Shown here piece by piece: positions 5,457-57,106 of a stretch of DNA of 64,000 nucleotides (position 1 is the first letter of the stretch; each line of letters starts with the position of its first letter). The notes beneath the pieces were generated by a model. The model had not been told where the DNA came from. It was given only the letters and a program-made list of their open reading frames with translations, and made no database searches. The stretch lies in assembly GCF_003334255.1 (NCBI RefSeq), contig NZ_QOWU01000010.1. One strand, 5' to 3'. The DNA comes from Escherichia coli (lineage in GTDB: Bacteria > Pseudomonadota > Gammaproteobacteria > Enterobacterales > Enterobacteriaceae). Both the position numbers and the translations under genes were made by a program.

Positions 5457-6077
5457 TTATTCTCCACAGGCAGGAAGTTGAGAAAGTTGTGCCGGTAACG
5501 TCTGAGCGTACAATCCGGCGCGTTTTACCGCATTAACCACCGCGCGGGGAGTAATCGTCGCGCCGGTGAACTGGTCGAAATCACCACCATCTTTCTTCAC
5601 CGCCCAGTGCGCATCATCTGCACCACTGATTTTTTTACCCGCAAAATGGGTGATCCAGTCAGAAAGGCGCAGTTCGATTTTATCGCCAAGCCCTGGCGTT
5701 TCGTGGTGCTCTGTCACGCGCGTGCCAAGTACCGTGCCGTTAAAATCGGCTCCCACCAGCAGCTGAATCGCACCGGAATAGCCATCTGGCGCGGTTGCTT
5801 CCAGAACGGCGGCTACCGGTTTGTCATCCTGTTTGGCGATGTAAACCCGATGCTCACCTTTACCTAACTCTGGCGCAGTTACCAGATAGCAACTCTGTGC
5901 CAGCGCATTGTTATAGCGTTCGGCTGGCAGCACCTGATCAAATAACGCCTTTTGTTGCAGACTGGCCTGTTCAGCAATCGTCGTTTTGGTCATCTGGTTG
6001 ATGGCCGCAGTTAACCCTGTTGAACCCGCTGCAAATAGCGCCAACGTAATGCCGTGTTTTCGGATAGTTTTCAGCAT
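5457..6077 (-). CDS. rsxG: Rnf/Rsx complex subunit G
   Basis: 206-aa ORF with N-terminal signal/anchor, FMN-binding type; operon position. Confidence 0.9.
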
Positions 6078-6080
6078 GGT

Positions 6081-7139
6081 TTACCCTTTGCGATGGCCGT
6101 AGACGCGCGGACGCGTGTAGTAATCGATCAGAGGAACCGTGATGTTCGCCAGCAGGACGGCAAAAGCCACGCCGTCAGGATAGCCGCCGAAACTGCGGAT
6201 CAACCAGACTAATAAGCCCGCAAGCGCGCCGAAAATAAGACGACCACGATTGGTCGTAGAAGCGGTAACCGGGTCAGTCAAAATAAAGAATGCGCCGAGC
6301 ATGGTCGCTCCAGACAGCAGATGAATTTGCGGTGCTGCCAGTGTTTCTGGTGAGAACAACCAGCCCAACATTGCGCATAACGCCAGCGTTACTAAGAAGC
6401 TGAGGGGAATATGCCAGCGAATCGCTTTCTGCCATAGCAACCATACGCCGCCAGCCAGCCAGGCGAGATTTACCCATTGCCAACCAGCGCCCGCCAGAAT
6501 ACCGCTGTAGATCGGATATTGCATAATCTGTTCAACCGAATGACCGGCACGGACAGAGGTTTTAAATGTATCCAGCGGTGTCGCCTGACTAATGCCATCA
6601 ATACCTAAGCGTAGTGTGTTCATATCACCACCACTGGCGGTATGACCGCTAAAAATAACCTGGATGGCGTCGATAAAACCAGGGATGTTGACCGCAATTT
6701 CATGTGGCGGTAACCAGCTGGTCATCTGCACGGGGAAGGAGATCAGTAAGACCACATAACCAATCATTGCCGGATTAAACGGGTTTTGTCCCAGACCGCC
6801 ATACAACTGTTTAGCGATGATCACCGCAAACACCGTACCCAGCACGACCATCCACCATGGCGCGAGGGGGGGAATACTTACCGCCAGCAATAAGCCTGTC
6901 AGCAATGCTGAGTTATCTTTCAACGTTGCGGCTACCGACTGCTTGCGTAGTTTGAGTACGAGAGCTTCGGCTAACAGAGCACTAACCGATGCCAACAGGA
7001 TCTGAACGAGAGTACCCCAACCAAAAAACCACAGTTGCGCTGCGATTCCTGGCACGGCTGCGAGCAACACCAACAGCATAATGCGCGATGTCTGGCGCTG
7101 GTTATGGGTATAAGGGGAGCTAGCTATTCTGAATACCAT
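6081..7139 (-). CDS. rsxD: Rnf/Rsx complex subunit D
   Basis: 352-aa polytopic membrane ORF; operon position. Confidence 0.9.
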
Positions 7140-20158: not shown

Positions 20159-23391
<3,233 letters not shown>

Positions 23392-41335: not shown

Positions 41336-42240
41336 ACTCTTTATTGAGATCGCTTAACAGAACGGCGATGCTTTGACCTCCCGCTGTTTGTTCAAGCGCA
41401 ATTTTGACAATAATTGTCAACGGCACGGAAAGCAGCATACCCACCGGTCCTAACAACCATCCCCAAAAAATCAACGACAAAAATACCACCAATGTGGAAA
41501 GCCCCAGCCCACGCCCCATGATACGCGGCTCCAGAATATTGCCGAAGACCAGATTAATCAGCAGATATCCCGCCAGCACCAGCAACGCTTCGTAGAAGCC
41601 ATTAAACACCAGTACCTGAGCGATAGGGGGGATTGCCGCGAGGACTGAACCAATATTCGGGATGTAATTAAGCGCAAAGGCCAGCAATCCCCAGACAAAA
41701 GCGAAGCGAACATCGAGTGCGGCGAGCATCGCCCAGGCGACCAGGCCGGTGATGATGCTGATGGCTGTTTTCAGCACCAGATAATGAGAAACACTGTCAA
41801 TCGCACGTTGAATCGCCGCCATCCCTTCAACCGGACGCGCCATCATTTGCTGAAATTTTCCGGGCAATTGTGGCACTTCGAGCAGCATAAACAGCACCGT
41901 CAGCAGCAATAAAAATATTGATGACATGGCATTAGATAACTGCGTCAATAAGTTGGTGAGCAACGTCATCGCCGCGTTCGGATCAATATAATGCGCCAGC
42001 TGGTCAACTGAGACGTCAATCCCTACGCGTTGCAACAACGGTTCAAGCGCTTGCAGCGGCGTCATAATAGAGTTGCGATATTGCGGTAACGTCCGCGTCA
42101 ACTCGTTGAGCGCGGAACCCAGATAAGCTAATAGCAACACCATCGCCATCACGATGATGGTCATCAAAATCGACACCGCCAGTACACGCGGCACACGCCA
42201 GCGGACCATGTGTTGCACCAGCGGGTTAAGAATAACAGCA
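41334..42240 (-). pseudogene. tqsA: tqsA (AI-2 exporter) 3' fragment, separated from its 5' end by the island
   Basis: Frame encodes ...[26 protein letters not shown]... to the normal C-terminus (SDLNKE); upstream of codon AVI the frame hits TGA/TAA stops in island DNA. Confidence 0.85.
42232..42240. repeat. left copy of 9-bp direct repeat (att core / target duplication)
   Basis: ATAACAGCA; identical copy at 57098-57106; both lie within tqsA codons 43-46. Confidence 0.7.
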
Positions 42241-42367
42241 TTTTATCATTTAGTGTTTTTTGCTGTTTCATAATGTTTCAGGCTGTGCATTATGTTTTTG
42301 ATTATCAACAGATTTGTGATTTTCCTTGTTCCAGCTTGTTTCACGTTGTAGCCCTTTGTGCAACGAT

Positions 42368-42391
42368 CGGTGTAGTCACTGGTGTAGTCAC
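42368..42391. promoter_or_regulatory. tandem GGTGTAGTCAC repeat near left end (candidate integrase arm-type site)
   Basis: CGGTGTAGTCACTGGTGTAGTCAC; near-identical copy at 57001-57024 near the right end. Confidence 0.4.
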
Positions 42392-47846: not shown

Positions 47847-48076
47847 TGTTCACCACTGTTCACCCTGTCATAAATATCTTTTGTATCAGTATGTTATAGG
47901 GTGAACAGTTATTTATGAACTGTTCACCAAACTATTCACTGTTCACCTTTTTGATTGTTTATTGAGCTTCAAGGGTGAACAGTGGTGAATAGTTGGTGAA
48001 TAGTTTTTGTGAAACTGTTCACCCCTTAACATTATGAATTAAAAGATAAAATATCAAAAGGTGAACAGGTGAAGGG
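47847..48076. repeat. iteron cluster (TGTTCACC / GGTGAACA), candidate origin of replication
   Basis: At least 8 exact 8-mers in both orientations (47847, 47857, 47899, 47921, 47940, 47974, 48016, 48060) plus degenerate GGTGAATA copies in an AT-rich 230-bp non-coding stretch. Confidence 0.8.
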
Positions 48077-53307: not shown

Positions 53308-53747
53308 TGCCGTGGCAACCATTAAGACGATGCACAGAACCAGGCTGTAACAGGCGCGTGAAGTCCGGCAAGTGTGAGGAGCACAGGCGGGCGGCATGGC
53401 GTGCAGAGGATGCCAGACGAGGACACCGCCGCGCGCGTGGGTACTCCAGACAGTGGGACAAATACCGCGCCATGTATCTGAGTAAAAACCCGTTATGCGT
53501 GCGATGCCTTGAGAAGGGGATATATACGCCCGCCGTGGTGGTGGATCACATTATCCCGATTAATGGCGGTGATGATGTTCTCTTCTGGCCCGAATGGAAC
53601 CATCAGCCATTGTGCCAGGCGTGCCATAACCAGAAAACGAAATGGCTTGATCCGGCAACAAAAAGCAAGCGTGCCGCAGGTGGATTTCGTGAAGAGGAAG
53701 AACGGGCCGCTAACCGCAATAACTGGATGTATGACGCTGATGAATGA
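53307..53747 (+). CDS. HNH endonuclease (packaging-associated)
   Basis: 146-aa ORF with Cys pairs (CTEPGCNRRVKSGKCEEH, CVRC) and HNH core VVDHIIPINGG...NHQPLCQACHNQKT. Confidence 0.85.
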   Translation: MPWQPLRRCTEPGCNRRVKSGKCEEHRRAAWRAEDARRGHRRARGYSRQWDKYRAMYLSKNPLCVRCLEKGIYTPAVVVDHIIPINGGDDVLFWPEWNHQPLCQACHNQKTKWLDPATKSKRAAGGFREEEERAANRNNWMYDADE

Positions 53748-53913
53748 GCGGGAACAAAACCGCCTTATCCGTGGACTTATAAGGCAGCGTGACGCATGGA
53801 AGACACAGGAAACAGGGCATAAAGATAAAGCGTCAGGACGCGCAGAACGCATCACAGCGAAGCGATTAACCGACCGTGACCGCGAGGTTATGGAATGTTT
53901 CCGCAATCGCTGA
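53740..53913 (+). CDS. possible small charged protein (57 aa), translationally coupled to HNH gene
   Basis: ATG overlaps HNH stop; MNEREQNRLIRGLIRQRDAWKTQETGHKDKASGRAERITAKRLTDRDREVMECFRNR; no RBS evidence. Confidence 0.25.
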   Translation: MNEREQNRLIRGLIRQRDAWKTQETGHKDKASGRAERITAKRLTDRDREVMECFRNR

Positions 53914-54035
53914 TGAGGCTGTATGACGGGGTGGGGGGCGTTTTCAGGACAAACCCGACCCCGCCGGGCACCGACCGCCTCCTCAAATTTTTATGCACGG
54001 GAATTTTTTGAAAAATAATCTGACGAAAAATAAGC
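53914..54035. other. candidate cos/packaging-initiation region between HNH and terS
   Basis: Non-coding stretch with G/C-rich blocks (ACGGGGTGGGGGGCG, CCCGACCCCGCCGGGCACCGACCGCC) directly upstream of terS; HNH-cos-TerS arrangement is typical of HK97-like cos packaging. Confidence 0.3.
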
Positions 54036-54392
54036 ATGGCAAGACCACCGAAAGCCCCCGCCTACCTGGATGACATCGCCGTGAAGCAGTGGCGGGAAAA
54101 ATCGCGGCAGCTTGCGGAACGGGGAGACCTGACCCCCGCCGACTGGAGCAATCTGGAACTGTATTGTGTCAACTACTCCATTTACCGGAAAGCCGTCGCA
54201 GACCTTGCGGCGCGCGGGTTCAGCATTGTTAACAGTCAGGGCGGCGAGAGCAGAAACCCCGCATTAAGCGCGAAATCAGACGCTGAAAGGGTGATGATAA
54301 AAATGGCCTCCTTGCTCGGTTTTGACCCGATAAGCCGCCGTAAAAACCCACCGGAAACAGAAGAAGAGGACGAGCTTGACCGCCTGGAATAA
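54036..54392 (+). CDS. terminase small subunit (P27-like)
   Basis: 118-aa ORF MARPPKAPAYLDDIAVKQWREKSRQLAERGDLTPADWSNLELYCVNYSIYRKA...; overlaps terL start. Confidence 0.7.
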   Translation: MARPPKAPAYLDDIAVKQWREKSRQLAERGDLTPADWSNLELYCVNYSIYRKAVADLAARGFSIVNSQGGESRNPALSAKSDAERVMIKMASLLGFDPISRRKNPPETEEEDELDRLE

Positions 54393-56037
54393 GTACGCAG
54401 AAGACGTAAAAACGGGCAAAATTCAGGCCTGTAAACGGTTAAAACAGGCCGTTAAACGGTACTTTTCGGACCTTAAAAGCCCCCTTTACACGTTCGATCG
54501 TGAGGTTGTGGATCGGTTTATTGCCTTTTCCAGGGTGTGCCCGCACGTAAAAGGGCCGATGCGTGGCAGACCCATTGAGCTGGAGCCGTGGCAGCAGTTC
54601 GCCTTTGCGTGCATCCTCGGCTTTAAGGTTAAGGCCACCGGACGGCGCAAATATACGAGCGCCTTTATCGAAGTGCCGCGCAAAAATGCTAAATCAACGA
54701 CCGCCGCGATTCTGGCTAACTGGTTTCTGATTATGGAGAACGGTCAGCAGGATATTTACACCGCAGCGGTGAGCCGTGACCAGGCGAGGATCGTATTTGA
54801 TGATGCGCGTCAGATGTGCATTTTATCCCGACCGTTACGCAGGCGGGTGAATATTCAGGCGCATAAGGTGATACACCCGAAAACCAACAGCCTGTTAAAG
54901 CCGCTGGCAGCAAAAGCGGCAACTATCGAGGGCACAAACCCCAGTCTTTCTATCGTGGACGAATACCACCTACACCCCGACAACGGCGTATATTCTGCGC
55001 TTGAACTGGGGATGGGGGCACGTCCCGAAGGGCTGTTATTTGCCATTACCACATCGGGAAGTAACGTCGTTTCAGCCTGTAAGCAGCATTATGATTATTG
55101 CTGCCAGATCCTGGACGGCGAAGAGGTTAACGAATCGCTTTTTGTGCTGATTTACGAACTGGACGACGAAAACGAGGTTGATGATCCGGAGATGTGGATA
55201 AAGGCGAACCCTAATATCGATGTTTCCGTGGATCGTGAAAAACTGGCCTCAACCATTCAGAAAGCGCGGGGTATTCCGTCGCAATGGGTGGAGATGATGA
55301 CAAAGCGATTTAATATCTGGTGTCAGGGGACTACCCCGTGGATGGGTAATGGTGCATGGGCTGAGTGTGCCGGAACGTTCACGGAGGAAGATTTACACGG
55401 TCAGGAGTGTTACGCGGGGCTGGACTTATCATCAACCAGCGATATTTCCAGCGTGTGCTATGCCTTTCCGGTCGGTAAAACCATTATGATGATTTCCCGT
55501 CATTATCTGCCGGAGTTCCAGCTACAGAACCCCGCCAATAAAAACCGCGCTGTCTATCGTCAGTGGGCTAAAGCAGGCTGGATACGCACAACGCCTGGCG
55601 ACTGCATTGATTACGACCGGATCAGAGATGACATCATGCAGGACGCGGAGAAATTTAATATCAGGCTGGTGGGCTTTGATACGTGGAACGCCACGCATCT
55701 CAGAACGCAATTACAGGGGGCAGGTTTTGAGGTGGAGCCGTTCCCGCAAACCTACCTCAGATTCAGTCCGGCGGCGAAATCGTTCGAAGTTTTTGTTAAC
55801 CGCAGGGTGATTGTGCATCGTGGCGATCCGGTGTTGTCCTGGTCGATGAGTAACGTCGTGATGCAGAGTGACGCGAACGCCAATATCAAGCCGAACAAGA
55901 AAAAATCACCGAACAAGATAGACCCGAGCGTGGCGGCGCTGATGGCGTTTGGTACATTCCAGGCAGAGCATGAGGATTTTGCTTTTGATATAAGCGACAG
56001 CCACCGCCAGAAACTGGAAGAATTTAGCGGGGTGTAA
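54376..56037 (+). CDS. terminase large subunit
   Basis: 553-aa ORF with ATPase P-loop region (VPRKNAKSTTAA) and C-terminal nuclease-type domain. Confidence 0.85.
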   Translation: MTAWNKYAEDVKTGKIQACKRLKQAVKRYFSDLKSPLYTFDREVVDRFIAFSRVCPHVKGPMRGRPIELEPWQQFAFACILGFKVKATGRRKYTSAFIEVPRKNAKSTTAAILANWFLIMENGQQDIYTAAVSRDQARIVFDDARQMCILSRPLRRRVNIQAHKVIHPKTNSLLKPLAAKAATIEGTNPSLSIVDEYHLHPDNGVYSALELGMGARPEGLLFAITTSGSNVVSACKQHYDYCCQILDGEEVNESLFVLIYELDDENEVDDPEMWIKANPNIDVSVDREKLASTIQKARGIPSQWVEMMTKRFNIWCQGTTPWMGNGAWAECAGTFTEEDLHGQECYAGLDLSSTSDISSVCYAFPVGKTIMMISRHYLPEFQLQNPANKNRAVYRQWAKAGWIRTTPGDCIDYDRIRDDIMQDAEKFNIRLVGFDTWNATHLRTQLQGAGFEVEPFPQTYLRFSPAAKSFEVFVNRRVIVHRGDPVLSWSMSNVVMQSDANANIKPNKKKSPNKIDPSVAALMAFGTFQAEHEDFAFDISDSHRQKLEEFSGV

Positions 56038-56050
56038 TGAGGTCAGCAGC

Positions 56051-56332
56051 ATGACAGAAGCCGAAATAACGGGATTAATCCGCCGCGTTGCCGGAATCAG
56101 CCAGCAGGCTGACGAACAGGCCACGCAGCCGGACAGCGTGACAGCCGAAAACTATGCGCGTGTTGTTGCTGAGGTGATGCGCCGTGATGGTATAGAACTT
56201 AATGGCGTGGATATGCGCAACATACGAACCAGAGTTCTTGAGTTGCTGGCCTACCGTCGCCGCGTGGAGATGTATCGGGAGAAGGAGAAAATAACGTACC
56301 ACTGGAAGAAGCCGGAGCGGTTGCGGCGGTAA
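56051..56332 (+). CDS. hypothetical protein (93 aa)
   Basis: MTEAEITGLIRRVAGISQQADEQATQPDSVTAENYARVVAEVMRRDGIEL...; ATG after GAGGT, 14 bp downstream of terL stop. Confidence 0.5.
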   Translation: MTEAEITGLIRRVAGISQQADEQATQPDSVTAENYARVVAEVMRRDGIELNGVDMRNIRTRVLELLAYRRRVEMYREKEKITYHWKKPERLRR

Positions 56333-56419
56333 CTGGTTGATATTCCCGACGGACCAAAAATGGGTGGCTACATCCCTCGCTTCTGAGGACTGTTAACAAG
56401 CTGCCTGAAAGACAGTCAC

Positions 56420-56890
56420 AAACTACGAAATTTTCGCAGTTTAATTAATGATCAGCTTAATCGCTAACCCGCTGATATTTTCGGAAACCTCAATTTGAGG
56501 AAGTCGGCGCGGTAACTCGCTGAACTTTAAGCAAAGTGCAAAATTGCGCTTGCTGAATAATCATTATGATTACGCAGATGATTAAGGAATGACCGAAGGC
56601 GGAAATTCGCCTGTGGTTAATGGGGGAGTTGCAGATCTGCAACTCGACCATGAAACTACGGAAACTACCCGTAGTTTGGGTAGTAAGAGTAACACCCAGA
56701 TTTTGGGTCTTACTCGTGATACCCAAATTTGGGGTATCAGTGGCAACCATAACGACTTTCGTTACGGTTGATGCTTTTACCCCATTGGGGGAAAGGTATT
56801 ACGATAATCATAACACCTACCGAACAGGTAAAGCCCACCAGCCTGATTAACGTTTAACCGGAAAAAAATTCCGGTAGGTGGGGATCCCCA
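56420..56890. other. palindrome-dense non-coding region at island right end
   Basis: Ten dyad-symmetric elements including perfect 20-bp palindrome GAGTTGCAGATCTGCAACTC (56626-56645) and three TACCC..GGGTA-type dyads about 25 bp apart; overlapping small ORFs lack RBS. Confidence 0.6.
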
Positions 56891-57000: not shown

Positions 57001-57024
57001 CGGTGTAGTCACTGGTGTAGTCAT
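57001..57024. promoter_or_regulatory. tandem GGTGTAGTCA repeat near right end (candidate integrase arm-type site)
   Basis: CGGTGTAGTCACTGGTGTAGTCAT, counterpart of 42368-42391. Confidence 0.4.
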
Positions 57025-57097
57025 TTTGCGATTTTTGGCACTTTTTGCGGTGAAAATTATTTAATTAAATCAACGTGTTATGTGAAATAAGTTATAT

Positions 57098-57106
57098 ATA
57101 ACAGCA
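57098..57106. repeat. right copy of 9-bp direct repeat (att core)
   Basis: ATAACAGCA, identical to 42232-42240. Confidence 0.7.

Follow-up and report, generated by a model that had tools for sequence, protein, structure and literature searches.

What does a 93-aa open reading frame do when it lies directly behind the large terminase gene (terL) of an Escherichia coli island? A preliminary description of this DNA offered two answers, a packaging or head-completion accessory protein or a cargo gene. The question reaches beyond one locus: phage satellites of the PICI type carry virulence and defence genes from one enterobacterium to another, and int, alpA, and pri are the genes accepted as their core. 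We analyzed this reading frame (ORF93) in the window, the whole 64,000-nt stretch of DNA, and compared it with its homologues in other satellites.

Coding evidence and island context of ORF93

As read from the annotated identical region of E. coli G1/2, the element that bears ORF93 is a capsid-forming PICI (cf-PICI) of the EcCIEDL933 type, about 14.9 kb long and inserted in tqsA, the AI-2 exporter gene. It has int, an alpA-type regulator, and a primase gene on the left, a module running from capsid to terL, a specific att site, and a size of about 15 kb, and the annotation of the identical region holds no tail genes. The gene order is tqsA', int, AlpA-type regulator, Icd-like gene, DUF4222, primase, SSB, and PerC, followed by capsid, protease, portal, head closure, connector, HNH, 60-aa ORF, terS, terL, and ORF93; about 770 nt without genes then lead to the other piece of tqsA. 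The features of the island that concern ORF93 are as follows.

42236-42243: attL copy of the 8-bp core ATAACAGC
53731-53913, + strand: 60-aa ORF between hnh and terS
53914-54000, + strand: probable cf-PICI cos region (G-rich ... TTCAGGAC ... C-rich), some 2.1 kb 5' of ORF93
54036-54392, + strand: terS (P27 family) of the cf-PICI
54376-56037, + strand: terL of the cf-PICI, here the upstream neighbour of ORF93
56039-56043, + strand: RBS (GAGGT) of ORF93, 7 nt 5' of the ATG
56051-56332, + strand: ORF93 (93 aa, PHROG 1561 family), ATG at 56051 and TAA at 56330-56332
57001-57023, + strand: probable arm-type sites of the integrase, formed by GGTGTAGTCA repeats in tandem; an identical 23-mer occurs at 42368-42390 near attL
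57097-57104, + strand: attR core ATAACAGC inside tqsA

The island length of about 14.9 kb follows from the two ATAACAGC copies that mark attL and attR. The linear Klebsiella cf-PICI record vB_KppS-Ant ends in sequence that aligns at about 53950 and starts with terS; by this comparison, the cos site of the window's island most likely lies between the 60-aa ORF and terS, near 53950. Positions 47908-48015 match plant microRNA precursors of Rfam weakly (E 0.02-0.035), which denotes a long hairpin; they fall between the primase gene and the next gene, a place for which PICI replication origins have been reported. EcCICFT073 and the O157 island, which are sited next to phoQ, share GGTGTAGT(T/C)A-type repeats and have a similar TTTAATTAAATCAA motif just inside attR.

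Since 108 ORFs of at least 40 aa occur within 14 kb, ORF length alone is no evidence of coding. The preliminary description had taken ORF93 for a real gene with a good RBS that lies close behind terL and is the last coding gene before a palindrome-rich region, and these points held: the RBS lies 7 nt from the ATG, the terL ORF ends 13 nt before the ORF93 start, and ORF93 is the final ORF before the palindrome-rich non-coding stretch. The identical CDS is annotated in RefSeq as the hypothetical protein WP_000133423.1. ORF93 aligns end to end with the PHROG 1561 profile (residues 1-93 to positions 1-93, E 2.9e-56), and the C-terminal two thirds match PHROG 7271 more weakly (E 5.6e-8). Both families are without an assigned function, so the match supplies a family name and explains nothing. 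The homologous proteins fall into 1028 clusters. Among five diverged copies, third codon positions differ about twice as often as positions 1 or 2, and the numbers of synonymous and non-synonymous codon changes are roughly equal, a substitution pattern that points to purifying selection on the protein. Taken together, the PHROG 1561 match, the 1028 clusters, the codon pattern, and a C-terminal peptide that is kept despite DNA divergence confirm, at the sequence level, that ORF93 is a genuine protein-coding gene under purifying selection.

The absence of a recognizable motif, also pointed out in the preliminary description, was borne out. A Pfam profile search with ORF93 returned nothing, even at E 10, and searches of NCBIfam, PADLOC, and PDB sequences gave zero matches. 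An exhaustive phmmer search of 1.84 billion representatives recovered only the ORF93 family, fragments, and two long repetitive proteins, and two more homologue searches added only 'hypothetical' proteins from Citrobacter, Salmonella, and further E. coli. Remote homology and structure prediction, which had been proposed as a check, thus provided a family (PHROG 1561) and a three-helix model, described below, and no functional or fold relative.

Distribution and right-end position in satellites

ORF93 homologues are present in 1567 of 5426 complete E. coli genomes (29%), with up to six copies per genome, and in a single one of 50,697 phage records, a Klebsiella record in which the match lies directly 3' of a cf-PICI-type terL and 5' of an integrase gene. 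Because of these counts, and because the one exception sits beside cf-PICI genes, the family is, as far as its distribution in these collections goes, satellite-specific.

The genes upstream of the homologues vary. Across 80 IMG/VR loci, the nearest upstream gene encodes a lambda-Nu1-like TerS in 36, a cf-PICI TerL in 22, RppA in 12, and none of these in 10; in the latter, 260-660 nt of non-coding DNA separate the homologue from a 137-aa gene or a capsid gene. Annotated neighbourhoods show the homologue after terL in cf-PICIs at phoQ and fis sites, after a DUF1441 (RppC-type) gene at clpS and tRNA-Ile/mug sites, and after a full-length lambda-Nu1-like small terminase gene at thiM and clpS; the last arrangement also occurs in satellites embedded in P2-like and lambda-like prophages. 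The L006 satellite is located beside the gene for baseplate assembly protein V in a P2-like prophage.

What stays the same is the end position. The homologue is the last satellite gene before attR, next-to-last in one case (L008), and this holds in Citrobacter, Klebsiella, one further enterobacterial genome, and EcCICFT073; ORF93 is present at this position in all island types sampled, including satellites with four packaging arrangements (cf TerL, Nu1-like TerS, RppA, and RppC). In locus L008, whose satellite is embedded in a lambda-like capsid gene, an abortive-infection gene (5679-6440) lies between the homologue and attR, and variable genes occur as insertions on either side of ORF93 homologues. 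In one Klebsiella cf-PICI, a short ORF93 form overlaps the terL stop, and in the Klebsiella satellite vB_KppS-Ant, 2.5 kb of other or cargo genes separate terL from the ORF93 form, which adjoins attP and int. The gap between the upstream gene and the homologue is only 2-14 nt in many loci, and from the close spacing in most loci examined we infer that ORF93 may be co-transcribed with the packaging genes. Collectively, these comparisons give good support to the view that ORF93 is a conserved right-end gene of many enterobacterial cos-packaged PICIs, whatever their packaging genes; in the loci compared, the constant feature is the right-end position in the satellite and not the adjacency to terL.

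Both proposals of the preliminary description fit this distribution least well and are disfavoured by it. In cf-PICIs, ORF93 adjoins terL, as might be expected of a structural protein that completes or stabilizes the cf-PICI head. However, most homologues belong to satellites with a Nu1-like TerS, RppA, or RppC, which are without terL, portal, and connector genes, build no capsid of their own, and use helper heads, and in the 10 exceptional IMG/VR loci a packaging-specificity gene is missing upstream altogether. Closure and connector proteins are already among the products of the cf-PICI, and ORF93 has no Pfam/NCBIfam profile match or fold match to the gpW, connector, closure, or head-tail joining families. 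A head protein, or any role specific to terL, is therefore hardly to be expected. As for cargo, ORF93 behaves as a fixed backbone gene: it is carried by 29% of complete E. coli genomes, is under purifying selection, and keeps the same right-end position in all four packaging arrangements.

A position next to attR could also indicate an accessory of integration and excision, namely, an architectural or directionality factor acting on the adjacent att arm. ORF93 is the satellite gene nearest to the attR side (second-nearest in L008), it stays beside attP and int where cargo splits it from terL, and the phoQ-site variants (L002 and L013) are closest to each other despite their different packaging types. 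On the other hand, the proteins of L003 (clpS site) and L007 (tRNA-Ile/mug site) are 99% identical although their att sites differ, which indicates that ORF93 does not track the integrase and weakens this reading. Comparison of ORF93 variants with att site and with packaging type gave a mixed result overall, a sign of mosaic recombination. The excisionase role in these islands is already filled by AlpA, and ORF93 is all-helical, with no Pfam match to the HTH_17/excisionase profiles (Xis/AlpA-type winged helix) and no strand in its model. Thus, we consider such a factor quite improbable.

Published experiments on two related islands bear on the remaining readings. EcCIEDL933, the prototype cf-PICI, resembles the window's island in carrying capsid, protease, portal, closure, connector, hnh, small ORF, terS, terL, and ORF93 in the same arrangement, and the O157:H7 copy of ORF93 has about 89-90% DNA identity to the copy studied here; however, EcCIEDL933 adjoins phoQ, whereas the window's island lies in tqsA. 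According to the accessible part of the published account, all packaging-module genes of EcCIEDL933 were mutated, and transfer was abolished in each case except for the gene 1792 mutation, which reduced it severely. The same part gives gene 1786 as the capsid gene, and counting from there we infer that 1792 is the 60-aa ORF between hnh and terS, 1794 is terL, and 1795 is ORF93. On this count the mutated range is 1786-1794, and a mutation of 1795 is not reported in that text.

In EcCICFT073, a 93-aa gene, probably c1504, follows rppA (c1503); a 144-aa gene at 21660-22094 of this locus (L013) fits RppA. The product of the 93-aa gene has the same length as ORF93 and 85% protein identity to it, and the gene holds the same right-end position, here next to phoQ. 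It differs from the window's gene in what precedes it, namely, rppA and a lambda-type cos site in reverse orientation rather than terL, and EcCICFT073 uses helper capsids and helper terminase. When the post-ori genes of EcCICFT073 were overexpressed singly, only c1503 (rppA) blocked lambda, and the ORF93 homologue is probably among the genes that did not interfere. A search of the literature on c1504 found no data.

These results matter for the idea that ORF93 is an effector directed at the host or the helper (counter-defence or interference, i.e., cargo in a broad sense). Such a role would suit a small protein without a known fold from a family found in satellites and not in phage records, bar the one match beside cf-PICI genes. 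It would also suit the location, since the flanks of the packaging module have been described as places for immune genes, and an abortive-infection gene adjoins the homologue in L008. In a later paper, the DNA beyond the packaging module is termed 'variable', and immune genes are predicted for it; ORF93, however, is the part of this DNA that is conserved. It has no PADLOC match, no post-ori gene of EcCICFT073 other than c1503 blocked lambda, and EcCIEDL933 is reported to leave its helper unharmed. We therefore think an effector role unlikely.

Downstream DNA, hairpins, and cos sites

The DNA between ORF93 and attR in the window contains four features.

56330-56369, + strand: conserved DNA at and after the ORF93 stop (TAACTGGTTGATATTCCCGA), followed by a short hairpin whose loop is A-rich
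56462-56553, + strand: repeats of the post-stop motif, followed by a GCAAAATTGCG-type hairpin
56488-56527, + strand: degenerate lambda cosN-like sequence in reverse-complement orientation (CCTCAATTTGAGGAAGTCGGCGCGGTAACTCGCTGAACTT)
56621-56790, no strand assigned: run of imperfect palindromes with a folding z-score of -9.2 on the + strand and -10.3 on the - strand

The post-stop hairpin lies 15-21 nt 3' of the stop in 23 of 64 loci. Its stem exists in at least eight versions around an unchanging AAA(A/T) loop, a pattern suggestive of selection on the structure. This raises the possibility that ORF93 ends the late operon as a regulator that binds RNA or DNA; its arginine-rich segment (RRRxxxRR...K...YxWKK) would bind the A-loop hairpin and, in the excised form of the island, control termination or read-through to attP and int. 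Helix 3 and the tail of the protein are indeed rich in arginine, and circularization of the island places int 3' of ORF93 on the same strand. The scheme would loosely resemble lambda N with boxB, to judge by the arginine-rich stretch of ORF93, which ends in W-K, and the nearby hairpin with its variable stem and A-rich loop. The differences are considerable, however. The motif is C-terminal in ORF93 and N-terminal in N, a BLASTP comparison of ORF93 with lambda N produced no alignment, and the hairpin is missing from the other 41 of the 64 related loci. The Klebsiella forms have an ordinary terminator in its place. Hence, a regulator of this kind has a small chance of being correct.

The palindrome run at 56621-56790 is kept in 8 of 13 related satellites. 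It is absent from EcCICFT073, from the Citrobacter and Klebsiella satellites, and from phages, and has no Rfam match; as EcCICFT073 and the Citrobacter and Klebsiella satellites bear ORF93, the run is not tied to the protein.

Every sampled satellite with an identified cos site has one of the lambda type or the P27/SfV type. In 39 of the 80 IMG/VR loci, the start of the homologue is preceded, at a distance of about 76 nt, by an intact lambda cosN in reversed orientation. The window has, 3' of ORF93, only degenerate lambda-like cos remnants and the repeats of the post-stop motif. In EcCICFT073, two inverted lambda-type cos sites (L013, 21559 and 22298) flank rppA, the second of them 65-76 nt before the start of the ORF93 homologue, and this pair probably corresponds to the published cos1 and cos2. 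Across EcCICFT073 and the 39 IMG/VR loci, the gene flanked by the inverted pair is rppA or terS. In L003 (6520-6602), and also in L004 and L011, a cos site of the SfV/ST64B/phiP27 type is located downstream of the ORF93 homologue. Satellites with such a downstream site have, in addition, an upstream lambda-type cos site and an Rpp or TerS gene, and judging by these two cos types, helpers of two unrelated families might be able to package them.

Predicted structure, conserved tail, and possible role

The AlphaFold model of ORF93 has three helices (residues 3-14, 28-45, and 52-82), no strand, and a disordered linker at residues 15-27. Its mean pLDDT is 77 and exceeds 90 for residues 30-70, and the helix hairpin (residues 28-82) is confidently predicted. 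The alignment of homologues shows conservation at the hairpin turn (G47, L50, N51, and D54) and of arginines in helix 3 (R59, R61, and R70/71), and the protein, of 10.9 kDa, is basic by its net charge. The strongest conservation is in the tail, Y83-x-W85-K-K-P-E-R-L-R-R (YHWKKPERLRR in ORF93, PYxWKKPERLRR as the family motif), which is nearly invariant even at about 40% identity. According to the model and the alignment, the conserved core of the family is the helix hairpin plus this basic tail.

An invariant C-terminus could be a by-product of an overlapping DNA site, such as the post-stop motif or the cos-like repeats. This explanation was rejected. The tail peptide is kept across Escherichia, Citrobacter, and Klebsiella while the coding DNA diverges, and the Klebsiella and Citrobacter genes encode the same peptide with different codons, which places the constraint on the peptide and not on the DNA. 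The downstream post-stop motif of E. coli is partly or wholly missing in these genes.

Comparison of the ORF93 model with known folds gave no match, including none to a DNA-binding fold. The N-terminal winged helix-turn-helix of TerS and Rpp (lambda Nu1 type) is absent from ORF93, which is all-helical in its model and has no profile match; TerS and Rpp are encoded by separate genes upstream of the homologues. A linked-dimer model was poor (pLDDT 45, pTM 0.30) and is thus uninformative on oligomerization.

We tentatively favour, with low confidence, the view that ORF93 is a late-stage transfer accessory of cos-packaged PICIs that works with any terminase through a partner that is constant across packaging types. 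This view draws on the selection on the protein, the satellite specificity, the constant end position, the tight spacing, the cos sites, and the helical basic structure. It keeps the general part of the earlier packaging-accessory proposal, a packaging or transfer accessory, as the leading idea and gives up its head-completion and terL-specific part. ORF93 would then be needed for productive transfer by every cos-type PICI, whichever terminase is used. The helix hairpin would serve as a scaffold that presents arginine-rich surfaces and the C-terminal peptide, and PYxWKKPERLRR would dock on a partner identical in all these satellites, either nucleic acid of the satellite itself (its end region, as DNA or RNA) or a component of the host or helper that is conserved; TerL, TerS, and Rpp themselves would not be the docking partner. 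The N-terminal helix and the disordered linker would be dispensable, since they are missing from the Klebsiella forms, which have 62-65 aa and resemble the short PHROG 7271 family. Several findings count against a late-stage accessory: gene 1795 of EcCIEDL933 is, by counting, outside the mutated range, the EcCICFT073 homologue probably does not interfere with lambda, cargo lies between terL and the gene in vB_KppS-Ant, 10 of the 80 IMG/VR loci have no packaging gene upstream, ORF93 has no fold match, and the linked-dimer model is unconvincing. There is an appreciable minority chance that ORF93 has some role beyond those named here, or no function at all.

Given its distribution, ORF93 is a candidate additional core gene of Gram-negative PICIs. 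In a stronger and more doubtful form of this proposal, ORF93 could be an unrecognized core gene beside int, alpA, and pri, the tail of which engages a host or helper component or satellite nucleic acid, so that satellites of all packaging types would transfer poorly without the protein. A fourth conserved gene shared by four packaging modes would point to an undescribed step of satellite biology, and it would also be a simple marker for finding PICI islands; if dispensable, ORF93 would be one more conserved small ORF.

Islands of this kind also occur under phage names. A 16.5-kb record of a phage collection, 'Escherichia phage vB_KppS-Ant' (LR881103.1), contains the full cf-PICI gene set, and in the 106-kb 'Klebsiella phage P12620-1' (PQ569648.1) a short ORF93 homologue accompanies an integrase gene and a terL of the cf-PICI type.
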